Below the pieces are notes generated by a model. The model made no database searches. It saw nothing but the letters and a program-made list of their open reading frames with translations, and was not told where the DNA came from. Below, in pieces: positions 14,875 through 63,820 of a stretch of DNA of 64,000 bases (positions are counted from its first letter, which is position 1; each line of letters starts with the position of its first letter). The position numbers and the translations under genes were made by a program. The DNA lies in the IMG/VR virus record IMGVR_UViG_2675903591_000001, positions 5,429 to 69,428 of that record; one strand, given 5' to 3'. Source of the DNA: a virus.

Positions 14875-16005
14875 ATGCGCAGTGATTTTGATCTGGCTAA
14901 GGCAGCAGAGAACTGTTCCGCAGAGACGATCGCGTTTTTGCAGACCGTCATCGAGTCGCCGCTTGACCAGCTGGAAGATTTCAGTGATTCCGACCCGGCA
15001 TTCAGGAAAGCATTCATGCTTTTCACTCGGCTATCTTTGTTAGTGACTCGCCGCCGACCCGAGCTTGGTGTCCACTGTATTTTGATACATGTTTTGCCTA
15101 AAATTGGCGATCTTCCTCTGTCCAAAATCACAAAAGTGGTCGTTAACCGGCTGACTAACCCGCTGATCATGGAAGGCAAAATTGTTCAGGGAAAACGTGT
15201 CTTTTCCATAATGAAGCAATTCCTAGCCTGGTGCGTGTTTCAGGGGTATCTAGAGAACTCACCAGTTGGCGACATTCCACTGAACAAAGTTGGTGGCTCA
15301 AACCCTAAGCCCAGGGAGCGCACTCTAACCGACGCTGAAATCTGGGTGTTCTGGCATGTATGGGATTACTTCGAAGTCTGCGAGGTGACGCGCTGGGCTG
15401 CCAGATTGACGCTTGCTGCTGCTCGACGCCCTGACGAGATACTACGTGCAAAATCCGCTGAGTTTGACCTCACCAATAACATATGGAACCAGGGTCGTCG
15501 CAACAAGTCGAATCGAGACCACCGGTTGCCCATCAGCCCGATTATGAAACTCTGTATCGAACGGCTGCTTGCCGCTGGCGAGGGGAGCGAATGGCTATGC
15601 CCATCTAATAAGAAAGCGGGCCGACCGATGTCTAAGGTGGCCATCAGCCAATCTCTACGCCGAATCCTTGAAACACCTGAAATGCTTGCGCTTGAGCCTT
15701 TCACTCCGCGTGACCTCCGCAGGACTGCAAGAAGCTGCCTGGCAAGCTTGGATGTACCGAGTGACGTATCAAGAAAGGTTTTAAATCAAAGCCTTGAAGG
15801 CATAGATCGTGTATACGATAGGCACGACTATATAGATCAAATGCAAGAAGCACTGTACAAATACTCAGTATTTTTGTTTAATATAGTCGAAAGCGAGGGG
15901 GTGGAGGATTTGAGCCACAAATACAAAGGCGACCGCCTGGATCTCTCAAACAGTCGCCTTGGGCTTGGTGTCGTTAATTTTCGATTGCGGCAAGTATCTT
16001 CTTGA
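14875..16005 (+). CDS. int: tyrosine recombinase / integrase
   Basis: C-terminal catalytic signature FTPRDLRRTA ... H ... VYDRHDY (R-H-R-Y) and an Arg-rich core. Confidence 0.8.
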   Translation: MRSDFDLAKAAENCSAETIAFLQTVIESPLDQLEDFSDSDPAFRKAFMLFTRLSLLVTRRRPELGVHCILIHVLPKIGDLPLSKITKVVVNRLTNPLIMEGKIVQGKRVFSIMKQFLAWCVFQGYLENSPVGDIPLNKVGGSNPKPRERTLTDAEIWVFWHVWDYFEVCEVTRWAARLTLAAARRPDEILRAKSAEFDLTNNIWNQGRRNKSNRDHRLPISPIMKLCIERLLAAGEGSEWLCPSNKKAGRPMSKVAISQSLRRILETPEMLALEPFTPRDLRRTARSCLASLDVPSDVSRKVLNQSLEGIDRVYDRHDYIDQMQEALYKYSVFLFNIVESEGVEDLSHKYKGDRLDLSNSRLGLGVVNFRLRQVSS

Positions 16006-58376: not shown

Positions 58377-58979
58377 ATGGACATCATCATCGACAAAGCT
58401 CGCACTTATGCGACCGCTGCTCACGGCGCTGTTGGTCAACGCCGCAAGTACACTAACGAGCCATACATCACCCACCCAACCGCTGTTGCCGAGCTGGTTC
58501 GTGCGCATGGCGGAACCAGAGACATGATTGCGGCCGCGTATCTTCACGATGTCATTGAAGACACTCAGTTGACCTTTGACGATCTGAAAGAGGCGTTTGG
58601 CGAGAGTATTGCGTGGAAGGTTGACGCATTGACTAATAAAGCCGGCAAAGAAGATGGCAACCGCGTACAGCGTTTTGTTATCAACTGCCGCGCGCTGATT
58701 AATAGCCTCGATGAAGAAACGATGGTGATTAAGCTGTGTGATCTGCTGCATAACACCTCTTCCATCGTTGAGCATGACCACGGATTCGCTGCGATCTACC
58801 TCGCTGAAAAAGAGTTCATGATGGATGAAATCTTTGGCCTGATGGAGGGCTGTCTGGCCGACATTGTCCGTGCAAAATTAGTGTGGGGCTATGAGCAGTT
58901 GAGCACCAGCTTCAAGGCGCGCCATTTGAAGCATCTGCGCACTATCCAGACTGCGTGGAGTGAACAAGATGCAGCATGA
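58377..58979 (+). CDS. HD-domain (p)ppGpp hydrolase (SpoT/Mesh1-like small alarmone hydrolase)
   Basis: HD motif AAYLHDVIEDT with upstream His and downstream Asp, typical of the RelA/SpoT hydrolase domain. Confidence 0.7.
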   Translation: MDIIIDKARTYATAAHGAVGQRRKYTNEPYITHPTAVAELVRAHGGTRDMIAAAYLHDVIEDTQLTFDDLKEAFGESIAWKVDALTNKAGKEDGNRVQRFVINCRALINSLDEETMVIKLCDLLHNTSSIVEHDHGFAAIYLAEKEFMMDEIFGLMEGCLADIVRAKLVWGYEQLSTSFKARHLKHLRTIQTAWSEQDAA

Positions 58980-59709
58980 GACCACCAGCACACTCGATCG
59001 CCAGGCGTTGATGGAGACGTTTCTAAAGGGTGTGCCAACCGAAGAGCTTCTCAACCACGATATTAACAGTTGGTATGCGCACAAAGCGCAAGAGCAAGCC
59101 GAGGAAATGCGCGATGAAATGGACTCACCCGCTGGTGGACTTTTGAAATTCCTAAGTAGTGGGCCGATGTCAGGTATGGCAGCAATGATGTTCGCCAGGG
59201 AGTTTAAGGACACACCGGCCAAAAACTATTATGAGCTGGTATATCAATTGCCTGAAATGGGGGCTTTCACGGTCACTATCCAGCGTAATGATGGAGAGAC
59301 GCCAGCTCTTCAACTGGCCGCAGCCAAAGACCGTATTGCCATGCTCGAAGAATCACACGCTCAGGTGATTCAGGCGCGTGATTTGTACAAGCAGAGCTGG
59401 CAGCTGTCATCTCTACAATCCATGTCACGATCATTCCGCGAGGCAGTGAGAGCGGCGCGCAAGGTGTGGCTCGATGAGAATGACCCAAAGGACGGCACTG
59501 ACTGCGTCACACCATTCGACCAGTTCCTATACACGGAAGTTATTTCTGGCGAGGGTGTCGATTTGCCAGACCTCTTCGAGCTGATGGAGTGGGCGAAATA
59601 CCCAGCCGATGGGCGCGATCTCAACTCAGTGGCTAAGGGCAAGATGTCACGTCTTATTCTGGCCGCGACCGGTTTGGGGGATGCGTCACTTACAGTAAGC
59701 GATCGGTAA
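58960..59709 (+). CDS. hypothetical protein (249 aa)
   Basis: ORF. Confidence 0.45.
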   Translation: MNKMQHETTSTLDRQALMETFLKGVPTEELLNHDINSWYAHKAQEQAEEMRDEMDSPAGGLLKFLSSGPMSGMAAMMFAREFKDTPAKNYYELVYQLPEMGAFTVTIQRNDGETPALQLAAAKDRIAMLEESHAQVIQARDLYKQSWQLSSLQSMSRSFREAVRAARKVWLDENDPKDGTDCVTPFDQFLYTEVISGEGVDLPDLFELMEWAKYPADGRDLNSVAKGKMSRLILAATGLGDASLTVSDR

Positions 59710-60951
59710 TTCCTTCAGACATGTGGTGTAGCGCGGGGAAAGCATCTCGCGCTTCATCTGCCATTGGTTATCAACCCCCTGCCCTGCGAACCAAACCTTC
59801 CCCAACCCTGTTTTATTAATCTTGTCGATGACACCCATTAGCTCATCTGCTTTGGCTCGCGGCTGGTGCTCGCTGAACATATCCAATTGAGCGACACCGC
59901 CCTGGAAGAAGTCACCGAGCATGATACCCGCGCGCGCGTAACGATAGCCATCACGCCATATCCTTTTCAGACACTGCATGGCAAACGCTACAATGTCACG
60001 CGTGTCGGCAGTCGAGTACTCGCAGGTGATCGAAGAGCTGTTGCCATATTGAGGCTCATTGGCGTAGCGGCTCGTTGCAATGAAAACAGTAATAAGCCGG
60101 CAACGTGATTTTTGTTCTCTCAATTTCTCTGAGGCACGAACGGCATAAGTGCAAACGGCATGTTCCATGTCTTCCAGGCGCTCAACGCGCTGCCCAAAGG
60201 ATTTGGAGGTGACGATCTGCTGCTTTGGTGGCGGCTGCTCTTCAAGTGGGATGCACGATTCACCATTCAGCTCACGGACGGTGCGCTCAAGCACTACACC
60301 GAAATGTTTGCGGATCATCGTCGTGTTGGCCTGTGCCAGCTGTAGCGCCGTTTCAATGCCCATCTGGTTGAGCCTCTTAGTTAATCGGCTCCCAACACCC
60401 CAGACATCACTTACATCGACGAGAGCCATCAGTTTGCGCTGTCGCACCGGGCTGGATAAGTCCAGCACCCCGTTTGTTTTTGACCATTTTTTGGCAGCGT
60501 GATTTGCCAGCTTTGCCAAAGTTTTACTTTGCGCAAACCCCACACCTACGGTTAGAAACGTTTCTTTTTTGATGCGATCTCGAAGCTGATGCCCAAAATC
60601 TTCAAGAGGTATACAACTGGAAATGCCTGTTACATCGAGAAAACTTTCGTCAATGCTGTAAATTTCTTGGCCTGGCGCCATCTCACCCATGATGGTCATC
60701 ATTCGTCGGCTCATGTCGGCATACAGAGCATAATTGCTGGAAAAGACCACTACGCCCTTCTCTTCAAAGAAACGCTCGTTTTTGAACAGTGGATCACCCA
60801 TTTTTATGCCAAATTTCTTGGCTTCAGCTGACCGTGCCACGATGCAGCCATCGTTGTTAGAACAGACCACAACTGGCTTCCCGCGCAAGTCAGGTCGAAA
60901 AATGGTCTCACATGAAGCGTAGAACGAATTTGCATCAACAAGGGCAAACAT
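59686..60951 (-). CDS. umuC: Y-family translesion DNA polymerase, UmuC-like
   Basis: N-terminal MFALVDANSFYASCE and the conserved Y-family palm and fingers. Confidence 0.85.
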   Translation of the reverse strand: MFALVDANSFYASCETIFRPDLRGKPVVVCSNNDGCIVARSAEAKKFGIKMGDPLFKNERFFEEKGVVVFSSNYALYADMSRRMMTIMGEMAPGQEIYSIDESFLDVTGISSCIPLEDFGHQLRDRIKKETFLTVGVGFAQSKTLAKLANHAAKKWSKTNGVLDLSSPVRQRKLMALVDVSDVWGVGSRLTKRLNQMGIETALQLAQANTTMIRKHFGVVLERTVRELNGESCIPLEEQPPPKQQIVTSKSFGQRVERLEDMEHAVCTYAVRASEKLREQKSRCRLITVFIATSRYANEPQYGNSSSITCEYSTADTRDIVAFAMQCLKRIWRDGYRYARAGIMLGDFFQGGVAQLDMFSEHQPRAKADELMGVIDKINKTGLGKVWFAGQGVDNQWQMKREMLSPRYTTCLKELPIAYCK

Positions 60952-60972
60952 TTGACGGCCTTACTATGATAA

Positions 60973-60988
60973 CTGTACGTATATACAG
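60973..60988. promoter_or_regulatory. LexA (SOS) box CTGTACGTATATACAG, 22 bp upstream of umuC
   Basis: perfect CTGT-N8-ACAG with an AT-rich palindromic spacer. Confidence 0.65.
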
Positions 60989-61045
60989 TTATTTTAGGTC
61001 GTCTTTTGCATAACGCCAAGCTAAACGGGGCAAATTGCCCCTAAG

Positions 61046-61696
61046 TTAGTAGTCTGCGAACTGAGCATATGGAATGCGAAGCCCAACGCGCTTGCCGAAA
61101 GAGTTGGCGAAAGTGTTCTGGTATTTGCTGACGTAGCGAGCTTGTAACTCAGAACCTGTCCAGCGGATGATCACCCCAGAATATCCAGTAACCGTGCCAT
61201 CATCTGAAATATTACCTGGTACTGCATTCATTAAGAACCAAGGGTTAAAACCGGGAGACGTTGAGACTGTTACATTGTCAACGTTCGAGTTTGGTTTCAG
61301 CTCAAGGAATCCCCGGATGCGTGGTGCAAGGTTAGCGCTTTTGGCACTCCATACTAAGTTTCCATTAGCATCAAGAACATCAAGATAGCCACTTTGAATA
61401 GGTACATTTCGGCTTGTTCGTAAGATACGACCGCTGTTGTTCTGGAAGGACTGGGCGCCAGGGAAGCAGAACGCGCCCGGATTAAGCTGAACCCAGTATA
61501 AATATCCCGGAACTGGACTATCGGCCGGTTTCAGAAAGCCAAATGGGTAATCACCCCCAAATGGATTTTTAACCATGTAATAACCAATATCAGTAAGACC
61601 GGTTATGTTACGGACATCACTCACTAGTGTATTTCGGTGTTGCGAATCAACCTGAAGTGCCCCTGCACTGTTGTATACCTCAAACCCCATTGCCAT
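61046..61696 (-). CDS. hypothetical protein (216 aa)
   Basis: ORF with a β-rich sequence. Confidence 0.5.
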   Translation of the reverse strand: MAMGFEVYNSAGALQVDSQHRNTLVSDVRNITGLTDIGYYMVKNPFGGDYPFGFLKPADSPVPGYLYWVQLNPGAFCFPGAQSFQNNSGRILRTSRNVPIQSGYLDVLDANGNLVWSAKSANLAPRIRGFLELKPNSNVDNVTVSTSPGFNPWFLMNAVPGNISDDGTVTGYSGVIIRWTGSELQARYVSKYQNTFANSFGKRVGLRIPYAQFADY

Positions 61697-61708
61697 AACT
61701 GCATCTCC

Positions 61709-61999
61709 TTATGCGTAACTGTAAACCTCGACCGTATAGGTCTCGCCATAACTCGTCCCAAACAACCGGTAGACTGTAATTGCATTCGTGCTTGCTTCAG
61801 CAAATGCCTCAATAAATAAGTTCGGTTTGACTATCGCACCAAATGCGGTGGTTGCTGAGATGCCTGCTACTCCGACAGTTGCCGAGTTCTGCCCCCGAGG
61901 AATTGTGATGTCATAGGTTCCAATATACCTGCAATTGTAATCACTGAGATCGACGACAAGTTTGCCGCTTGCATCCCAGCATTGAAGCCCGAAAGCCAT
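61709..61999 (-). CDS. hypothetical small protein (about 96 aa from MAFGLQ)
   Basis: SD AAGGA; the upstream part of the track ORF overlaps the promoter palindromes. Confidence 0.45.
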   Translation of the reverse strand: MAFGLQCWDASGKLVVDLSDYNCRYIGTYDITIPRGQNSATVGVAGISATTAFGAIVKPNLFIEAFAEASTNAITVYRLFGTSYGETYTVEVYSYA

Positions 62000-62134
62000 G
62001 GTTAAAATCCTTTTCAACCGTTGAAAGTCTTGACATTTTACAATTAGCATGACGCCGTAAACAAATTGTTTTATGTCGTGTCTTATATGGAATAATAACA
62101 CCAATAAGAAAACAATTTGTTTAATGGTGGGTAA

Positions 62135-63160
62135 ATGAGCGCAGCACTCTCAATCATCGAAGCATCATCCCCTGGCAGCAGCGTGGCATTCCGCGAAGAG
62201 CTGGCGATAATCAATAACATCGTAGCTGAGTGCGATCGTGAGATTGCCCTGATGCACGAGGTGCACGGCTACGTTTATGGTGATGACCGTTATCAGATGA
62301 TTAATCGTTTGTTGGAACTGAACCACCAGCCAGATTGCAATGCGCGCCCGGGAAGCACCCTCTCCAAAGTTAACTTGCAGCATGTGAAGGAAAACATTCA
62401 CGCGCGTTACTGGCAGCGGGTTACGGAAATGACCAATGTCTTAATGATCATGCCAGCTGCGCGCCGCGAGGAATGGCGAGAGCAGTTTATCCAGGGGAAG
62501 ATAGAAGTTTCCGAAGAACGCAAAACGGGAATGTTCAAGGACACGTACCGAGCTAAGAAGTATGTAGGCGTCCCGGAGTTCACCCTTCAAACAGTTGTGC
62601 CGACAATGGTCTCGTTATTGAATGACCGCCACAAGTACCTGGTCGAGCGTGTGCATGGCTTATTCAAGGCACTCAGCCCACACCACAAAACTAACAAGGT
62701 GTTTGGCTTTTCTGAAAAGATGATCATCTCCTATGTCTTTACCGACTACTGGAATGACAGCGTTTCAATCAACCACCGCAAAGAGGATGTGCTCGACGAC
62801 CTGCGAGTGATGCTTCACTTCTTCGCGCATCAGGAAATTACAGAGGTGGCGCCGTCACGTCATGTGTTTAGCGCGCTTTACCGTGACAACAAGGCAATGA
62901 ACACCTGGTACAGCATCGACGGCAACTTGATGCGAGTGAAGATGTTCAAGAACGGCAACCTGCACATTCAGGTTCACCCGGACGTAGCCTGGAAACTCAA
63001 TGAAGTTCTGGCGGTGGCCATGCCGGCCTCAATCCCGTCAGAGCTTCGTAAGCCACCTGCAAAGAGCGCCCCGCCAAAAGAGTTTGGGCATGTTCACACG
63101 GAAGTGAGCAGCCAGGCGAGAAGAGCGTTATCAACGATGAGTAATCGTTACGGCAGCTAG
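62135..63160 (+). CDS. hypothetical protein (341 aa)
   Basis: two GAAAACAA-type palindromes upstream. Confidence 0.5.
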   Translation: MSAALSIIEASSPGSSVAFREELAIINNIVAECDREIALMHEVHGYVYGDDRYQMINRLLELNHQPDCNARPGSTLSKVNLQHVKENIHARYWQRVTEMTNVLMIMPAARREEWREQFIQGKIEVSEERKTGMFKDTYRAKKYVGVPEFTLQTVVPTMVSLLNDRHKYLVERVHGLFKALSPHHKTNKVFGFSEKMIISYVFTDYWNDSVSINHRKEDVLDDLRVMLHFFAHQEITEVAPSRHVFSALYRDNKAMNTWYSIDGNLMRVKMFKNGNLHIQVHPDVAWKLNEVLAVAMPASIPSELRKPPAKSAPPKEFGHVHTEVSSQARRALSTMSNRYGS

Positions 63161-63289
63161 TCGTATAGTCATCATGGTTTATCCAAATCAGAGATAGAGA
63201 AGGCTGACGCTGTCATTAAGCGGATCGGCGGCGTTCAAACCAGCAGCCATTGCTTTAAATTCCCATATGAGCCTGGCAACATCATTAGC

Positions 63290-63820
63290 ATGATCATGGC
63301 CACCGGTCAGATACCGGATGTAGTTGCCCACCAGTTCTACCCTACCCCAAAAACAATCGCAGATTATATTGCGGCGGCGCTCAATATGAAGCCAGGCGAA
63401 ACACTGCTTGAGCCTTCAGCTGGTCGAGGTGATTTGTTGGCGTCCGTTCCGTTGGCAAGCGAGTTCGCGACCTGCATTGAAGTGGCTCCGTTGTTTGCTG
63501 AAATCTTAAAAGAGAAAGGCTACCAAGATGTTCATAACGCCGACTTCATTGCCTGGTCGAAAGACTATGCCCAGATGAAGTTCGATAAGATCGCCATGAA
63601 TCCGCCTTACTCCGAAGGCCGTGCCAAAGCTCACACACTCACCGCTCTGGAACATCTGAATGTTGGTGGCCGGCTGGTGGCAGTCCTGCCTGGTGTGCCA
63701 AACCTGACAGAGTGGATTGATGAACGTCGATTTGCGTGTGTGATCGGTAAGACATTTGAGAGAGAGTTTGAGGACACCGGCGTAACAGTGACGGTCTGTA
63801 TCTTTAAGCGCATCAGCTAA
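63290..63820 (+). CDS. small N6-adenine DNA methyltransferase (gamma-class motif order)
   Basis: motifs in the order FYPTP (X), LEPSAGRGDL (I), NPPYS (IV). Confidence 0.7.
   Translation: MIMATGQIPDVVAHQFYPTPKTIADYIAAALNMKPGETLLEPSAGRGDLLASVPLASEFATCIEVAPLFAEILKEKGYQDVHNADFIAWSKDYAQMKFDKIAMNPPYSEGRAKAHTLTALEHLNVGGRLVAVLPGVPNLTEWIDERRFACVIGKTFEREFEDTGVTVTVCIFKRIS

Follow-up and report, generated by a model that had tools for sequence, protein, structure and literature searches.

What does a umuC gene contribute to a phage-plasmid on which no umuD is found? The question is posed by 64,000 nucleotides of viral DNA (positions 5,429 to 69,428 of the IMG/VR record IMGVR_UViG_2675903591_000001, referred to below as the window), in which a single umuC gene lies on the minus strand at positions 59686-60951, downstream of a putative binding box for the SOS repressor LexA. 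At somewhat better than even confidence, we favour the explanation that this gene, an accessory of a clade of SSU5-like phage-plasmids, is a LexA-repressed solo cassette whose product pairs with UmuD' provided in trans. The steps that lead to this explanation, and the alternatives that arise along the way, are presented below.

Over 25 kb, the window shares 94% identity with plasmid 1 of Cronobacter (muytjensii) JZ38; its identity to the Enterobacter element pCP102 is 93%, and it shows weaker matches to hundreds of ~105-120 kb non-mobilizable plasmids from Klebsiella, Enterobacter, Salmonella and Yersinia as well as to phage SSU5. Complete relatives encode RepB, ParB, a DnaB-like helicase, a primase, a ligase, NrdAB and thymidylate synthase together with a siphovirus module consisting of terminase, portal, capsid, tape measure and tail fibre. 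The window corresponds to the replication and nucleotide-metabolism half of such an element, and the structural half lies outside it. Plasmid 1 of JZ38 has been called SSU5-like and has a guanine-cytosine content of 49%, compared with 57.6% for the chromosome (PMC7078163). An earlier interpretation made from the letters of the DNA without database searches (the sequence-only reading) had placed the gene on a phage-plasmid; the synteny with JZ38 plasmid 1 and pCP102 and the published description agree with this, and by its gene content the element is an SSU5-like phage-plasmid (~100-115 kb, with a RepB replicon and, in the relatives, siphovirus genes). Megablast of the locus against phage genomes returned just an 84-bp match, located in a DUF4942 gene. 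Seven orthologues of umuC were compared throughout this study: those of the window, of two complete relatives (109 kb each) and of four IMG/VR members, the latter with 95-99% protein identity and an identical layout. The seven elements found come from viral contigs of IMG/VR and from isolates of Enterobacter and Cronobacter associated with plants and soil. A Klebsiella SSU5-like element without umuC has an HD-domain gene followed directly by the DUF4942 gene, and umuC therefore occupies a variable accessory slot.

The umuC coding sequence is the only long open reading frame (ORF) adjoining the LexA box; it starts with ATG and encodes 421 amino acids. The product scored 659.1 bits with the whole-protein hidden Markov model NF002955 of NCBIfam for UmuC (cut-off 431) and exhibited the Pfam architecture IMS, IMS_HHH and IMS_C plus DUF4113 at residues 370-417, which substantiates its initial identification as a UmuC-like Y-family polymerase. 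It falls outside the DinB/Pol IV class, as the best Pol IV model reached 181 bits (cut-off 381) and DUF4113 is present. In an alignment with UmuCs encoded next to a partner gene (paired UmuCs), residues D6, Y11, D101 and E102 are invariant; we take D6, D101 and E102 to be the catalytic carboxylates and Y11 to be the steric gate, as in E. coli UmuC. A beta-clamp motif, QLDMF, is found at residues 355-359 (expected form QLxLF), and both the DUF4113 motif and the C-tail WQMKREMLSPRYTT of the paired UmuCs are kept in the solo protein. The DUF4113 motif (RecA-NT-like) binds RecA, and the extreme C-tail of UmuC is the primary UmuD'-binding site (Timinskas & Venclovas, PMC6511836; 2026 survey, PMC12926913). 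Judged by eye on the alignment, a C-terminal stretch of ~35 residues is ~91% identical to the UmuC of a Pantoea plasmid, compared with 75% for the whole protein. A search of the PDB with UmuC yielded no UmuC structure, the best matches being Pol IV, and an exact look-up of the protein in an assembly index yielded no record. The ORF is uninterrupted in all seven elements, and the ratio of nonsynonymous to synonymous substitution rates (dN/dS) across the seven orthologues is 0.04-0.09 (0.19 for the single near-identical pair), with synonymous divergence (dS) of up to 0.87. Because this low ratio is accompanied by retention of the catalytic, clamp, RecA-binding and UmuD'-binding motifs, the solo umuC is, by these sequence measures, a functional gene under long-standing purifying selection and not a relic.

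The LexA box was analyzed as the 20-mer AACTGTACGTATATACAGTT at positions 60971-60990, whose 16-nt core CTGTACGTATATACAG (60973-60988) is separated from the umuC ATG by 21 nt. Taken alone, the bare pattern CTGT-N8-ACAG is not significant, with 1 match versus 1.11 expected in the window and at least one match in 67 of 100 shuffled versions. When scored with a LexA position weight matrix, which is an approximate one based on SOS boxes of E. coli, the 20-mer reached 24.3 bits, compared with a training median of 20.4 and a maximum of 18.6 over 100 shuffled windows. It is the top LexA-like site of the window, and the orthologous site ranks first in each of the two complete relatives. Its heterology index is ~4, by an approximate score in the style of that index. 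Across the seven phage-plasmid orthologues and two sister loci, neither the CTGT nor the ACAG arm varies; in the alignment of the upstream region, the arms form nearly the sole invariant non-coding columns, and the spacer and flanks vary. The distance between box and ATG is 18-19 nt in the four IMG/VR members. A putative sigma-70-like promoter (TTGGCG-17 nt-TAAAAT, positions 60991-61019, minus strand) matches the consensus at 9/12 positions, of which TTGG and TA..(A/T)T are kept among the orthologues. The box starts immediately after the -10 hexamer, within an intergenic region of 94 nt, and therefore covers the likely transcription start. On the same strand, a candidate Shine-Dalgarno sequence, AAGG (60959-60962), lies 7 nt before the ATG, and a GC-rich, terminator-like hairpin, GGGGCAATTTGCCCC (61027-61041), kept in 6/7 orthologues, separates the upstream minus-strand gene from the umuC promoter. 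With its own putative promoter and this preceding hairpin, umuC is therefore a monocistronic unit. The box is more than a chance match because its matrix score exceeds that of all shuffles, because it adjoins a -10-like hexamer in front of a canonical SOS gene and because its arms are invariant. Carrying a good CTGT-N8-ACAG operator at its promoter, umuC is a predicted member of the LexA regulon. The box proximal to umuC that was proposed by the sequence-only reading was hence found in place; its description as perfect is correct for the CTGT and ACAG arms, but not for the spacer with its two non-AT positions.

These data also bear on the idea that we are looking at a decaying umuDC remnant with a CTGT-N8-ACAG that arose by chance. 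Such a remnant would be expected to have lost umuD, as is the case here, and the bare 16-mer alone is expected about once per window. The ORF intact in 7/7 elements, the low dN/dS, box arms that are invariant in 7/7 and placed at the same distance as in the sister loci, and a matrix score above all shuffles effectively refute this idea.

Is a partner of UmuC encoded anywhere on the element? The neighbouring minus-strand ORFs (61046-61696 and 61709-62002) gave no hit to any family in Pfam or NCBIfam and, in PHROGs, matched only groups of unknown function and no peptidase, in line with the initial claim that no umuD or S24 peptidase gene is adjacent. Six-frame phmmer searches with UmuD, MucA, LexA and lambda cI gave no E-value below 0.17 in the window and none below ~0.3 across the two complete relatives. 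Neither in the window nor in these relatives was there a match to a profile of 113 UmuD-like ORFs gathered beside other umuC genes (hmmsearch), to the profiles of two small umuC-associated proteins (the UmuD-like phrog_3469, and phrog_3893) or to a YolD sequence (phmmer). No S24 protein is annotated by the Prokaryotic Genome Annotation Pipeline on either complete relative, and the same sequences contain no second strong LexA box that would flag a distant, co-regulated partner. The locus thus lacks the adjacent or co-transcribed S24 gene of a umuDC-type operon, and on the above searches it does not appear to belong to the YolD/YqjX-associated class of UmuC-like polymerases from Gram-positives either. 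A umuD homologue elsewhere on the element, which the sequence-only reading had named as the finding that would speak against it, was sought in the window and in the two complete relatives and was found in none of them.

In NZ_CP017663.1, NZ_CP104015.1 and the window, no S24-family protein (LexA/cI-like, self-cleaving) is encoded anywhere. The suggested link between umuC and the induction of the element itself is therefore unsupported, as the sole strong LexA site is that of umuC and an S24-type cleavable repressor is missing. Should the element be SOS-inducible, neither a cleavable repressor of the cI type nor an obvious antirepressor under LexA control could account for it. The second-best LexA-like site, CACTGTACAAATACTCAGTA (15851-15870, 17.8 bits), is identical in three elements (also at L003:21788 and L007:9177) and lies ~100 nt from a convergent gene for an XRE-family regulator. 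It falls within the 3'-terminal part of the integrase ORF (14875-16005) and not at a promoter, and is probably no operator; we ascribe its conservation to coding constraint or chance.

Other Y-family polymerases are known with small subunits that are not UmuD (PMC6511836; PMC12926913), and a non-homologous subunit that escaped recognition could in principle be encoded elsewhere on the phage-plasmid. One candidate for such a role is the clade-specific product of a hypothetical 249-aa gene (58960-59709, plus strand), which runs towards umuC and shares 24 nt with it at the 3' ends, and which we treat as context and not as part of the umuC unit. All seven elements with umuC carry this gene, which has no full-length copy elsewhere in PLSDB and showed no S24 similarity in phmmer and profile searches. 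This co-occurrence is confounded by phylogeny and uninformative, because all carriers belong to one clade. Moreover, the gene resides in an early plus-strand operon, on the strand opposite to umuC and without a LexA box, and is found beside no other umuC among 160 loci. Given also that the box of umuC is the only strong LexA site of the element, we consider a hidden subunit improbable.

The closest homologues outside the clade, with 71-75% identity, are encoded on Pantoea plasmids and in Erwinia and Rosenbergiella genomes (L009, L010 and L012-L014). These loci contain the same module of LexA box and umuC: an S24-like gene is followed by a gap of 60-80 nt, in which a strong LexA box lies 17-20 nt before the umuC ATG. 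They differ from the window and its clade in that a pre-truncated UmuD'-like gene, devoid of the catalytic Ser, is kept just upstream. The S24-like protein of this lineage begins at the N-terminus of UmuD', has no catalytic Ser motif and is HumD-like. On the Pantoea plasmids, the S24-like partner (L009:3539-3937, L010:609-986) starts with AFQSPA, corresponding to UmuD residues 25-30 just past the cleavage site, is devoid of the GDSM serine and sits after a gene for a TrfB-like regulator. The Pantoea S24-like gene lacks a separate LexA box, and LexA control is therefore confined to umuC there. In the light of this arrangement, the umuC transcription unit was probably captured alone from an Erwiniaceae-type locus in which the two units were already separate.

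To see how common the layout is, 80 loci from species-representative genomes and 80 viral loci were surveyed. An S24 ORF lies directly upstream of umuC in 62/80 genome loci and is adjacent in 47/80 viral loci, and most of the remaining loci have a partner as well, namely phrog_3469 upstream, or phrog_3893 upstream combined with a UmuD'-like gene downstream of umuC. Truly solo umuC genes with a proximal box comprise the seven phage-plasmid copies and three cases from bacterial genomes. The latter were found in Sodalis sp. dw_96 (L059), Yokenella regensburgei (L083) and Leclercia tamurae (L067), around positions 3900-5266, where a strong LexA box precedes the ATG by 16-69 nt and an S24 or UmuD'-like ORF is missing within ~4 kb. 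They share the partner-less layout with the phage-plasmid genes but are located in bacterial genome assemblies and not on a recognised phage-plasmid, are ~60% identical and uncharacterised, and appear to be independent losses. The partner-less layout is thus rare but recurrent. In the literature, we found no description of a solo, LexA-boxed umuC without umuD on a phage-plasmid.

How would such a gene work? In the mechanism that we favour, host LexA bound to the box abutting the -10 hexamer would block umuC transcription in the undamaged cell. Upon DNA damage, RecA* would promote LexA self-cleavage and the single gene would be expressed. UmuC would then join a UmuD'-type dimer originating from the host chromosome or a co-resident element, together with RecA-ATP, and the resulting hybrid Pol V-type mutasome would provide more translesion capacity and mutagenesis during SOS. 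A polymerase and translesion activity that depends on UmuD'2 and RecA is accordingly what we predict for the solo UmuC. Since the clamp, RecA-binding and UmuD'-binding motifs are kept, assembly with UmuD' in trans is most likely, and we favour it over a solo polymerase. The trans-partner step is supported by the retained UmuD'-binding tail, by the separate transcription of the ancestral partner and by the chromosomal umuDC carried by most of the sampled genomes of Enterobacter species. A precedent is offered by phage-plasmid P1, which has humD alone (cited in PMC11541004). Since UmuC limits the amount of Pol V in E. coli, Pol V levels could rise through an additional umuC by itself.

Several points weigh against this mechanism. 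LexA binding and SOS induction of the gene are predictions. The last five residues of the C-tail (IAYCK) are unlike those of paired UmuCs, and the ancestral partner seems to have been pre-truncated and HumD-like and not a canonical UmuD. Plasmid-borne and chromosomal Umu-like subunits are not always interchangeable. The supply of UmuD' by the host, plausible as it is, is extrapolated from the sampled genomes of Enterobacter species to the elements' own hosts. Finally, the long-term solo state across hosts could fit independence from a partner equally well.

This last point leads to the main rival explanation, a UmuD-independent polymerase that works with RecA alone as a two-component PolY-RecA mutasome, or by itself. 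The age of the solo state implied by the dS values, the strong purifying selection on the gene in seven elements whose hosts differ and the solo umuC genes with proximal box in the Sodalis, Yokenella and Leclercia assemblies are in its favour, and PolY-RecA complexes without a small subunit have been proposed to be widespread (PMC12926913). However, the UmuD'-binding C-tail is better conserved than the protein average (by eye), the sister lineage retains a UmuD'-like partner, and E. coli UmuC is known to be little active without UmuD'2 and RecA (PMC12926913). We therefore regard UmuD-independence as unlikely, albeit as the strongest of the alternatives. Its most far-reaching version is a touch less likely again: a polymerase of the UmuC subfamily freed of any UmuD-type subunit, which would act as a UmuC-RecA mutasome and be spread by phage-plasmids as a one-gene, LexA-switched 'mutator cassette', with parallels in Sodalis, Yokenella and Leclercia.

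The conserved motifs for binding the clamp, RecA and UmuD' would also suit a role other than DNA synthesis, in which the SOS-induced UmuC would act mainly through binding to host factors such as UmuD or UmuD', RecA or the beta clamp and would modulate recombination, replication restart or host Pol V in a checkpoint-like or anti-SOS manner to the benefit of the element. When abundant, UmuD2C and UmuD'2C are known to slow replication and to interfere with recombination mediated by RecA. Pure binding, however, would not need invariant catalytic carboxylates and a steric-gate Tyr, nor the strong selection seen on the polymerase core, which makes a non-catalytic role quite improbable. Behind UmuD-independence, the alternatives thus rank in the order hidden partner, non-catalytic role and relic, and pairing of UmuC with UmuD' in trans is the explanation that we retain.

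Upstream of umuC, two minus-strand genes (61046-62002) encode proteins of 216 aa (61046-61696) and 97 aa (61709-62002) with similar N-termini, assigned to PHROGs 4524 and 7961/2427 of unknown function. They precede umuC in 6/7 phage-plasmids. As candidate UmuC partners they were dismissed, since they do not precede umuC in JZ38 but do occur, at another position, in the umuC-less Klebsiella phage-plasmid. Copies of the pair are located at L172:3150-4106 and in L053, L054 and L171 at ~750-1900; in some loci of Enterobacter and Kosakonia, the pair stands 2-3 kb ahead of umuDC. Further upstream, the DUF4942 gene (62135-63820) measures 1686 nt as in the relatives, and carries an in-frame TAG at 63158-63160 where pCP102 and JZ38 have TGG (Trp). 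The TAG splits the gene of the window into ORFs of 341 aa and 176 aa, and represents either a nonsense mutation that created a pseudogene or a sequencing error.

Two further arrangements were encountered in the survey. In seven loci from Pantoea and other Enterobacterales (L051, L071, L076, L079, L082, L088 and L091; ~3740-5550), a LexA box is followed by the gene of a phrog_3893 protein, umuC and a UmuD'-like gene. The phrog_3893 protein has 79-83 aa and an unknown function, shows no UmuD similarity by hhalign, and its gene overlaps the start of umuC (GTGATG); it may be an extra, undescribed accessory factor of Pol V. In L023, L037, L042, L084 and ~27 IMG/VR prophage loci (e.g. L114-L170), the 'UmuD-like' phrog_3469 protein of ~100 aa stands in place of canonical UmuD, 300-330 nt upstream of umuC. 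It aligns to the C-terminal half of UmuD (hhalign E 3.6e-5) and is devoid of the Ser-containing loop and of the cleavable N-terminus. The phrog_3469 protein amounts to a UmuD'-type partner in a constitutively 'activated' form, and it is common among temperate phages of enterobacteria with a size of 40-55 kb, such as Oslo and CobraSix.

In enterobacteria, SOS mutagenesis stems mainly from Pol V, which is usually regarded as an inseparable UmuD'2C unit. The phage-plasmid gene offers a natural test case, either for promiscuous pairing of UmuC with a resident UmuD' or for a UmuC that works without one. Whichever of the two holds, it is relevant to the ways in which mobile elements make their hosts more mutable, and thereby to adaptation and the evolution of resistance under DNA-damaging stress. 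With a small clade of seven elements found, the practical impact is limited.

Compared with the E. coli umuDC operon (Pol V), the solo UmuC is 58% identical to the UmuC sequence of E. coli K-12 (and 60-61% identical to chromosomal UmuCs of Enterobacter and Klebsiella) and has the domains, catalytic residues, clamp motif, RecA-NT-like motif, C-tail and promoter LexA box in common; it differs in that umuD is missing, the box precedes umuC instead of umuD, and the gene is monocistronic and located on a phage-plasmid. The humD gene of phage-plasmid P1 is said to encode a UmuD' homologue working with host UmuC, as reported by McLenigan and colleagues in 1999. The two cases are alike in that a phage-plasmid supplies one half of Pol V and the host the other subunit (which for the solo UmuC is the predicted situation), and they are mirror images in that P1 has the small subunit and the SSU5-like element the catalytic one, in unrelated groups of phage-plasmids. 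The solo umuC complements the classic P1 example. According to a citing passage in PMC11541004, P1 carries only humD. The phages Oslo, CobraSix, ENT39118 and PHB10 also bear a LexA-boxed umuC (56-62% identical), but have a phrog_3469 gene upstream, with the LexA box ~320 nt before umuC, and are integrative prophages of 40-55 kb. The mucAB, impCAB, samAB and rumAB systems are likewise SOS-regulated error-prone polymerases borne by mobile elements (PMC11541004; PMC8460599); unlike the solo umuC, all of them are A+B pairs with their own S24 subunit. In comparison with all these systems, a known enzyme is here combined with a known regulatory logic, and what differs is its uncommon, conserved, partner-less arrangement on a phage-plasmid.

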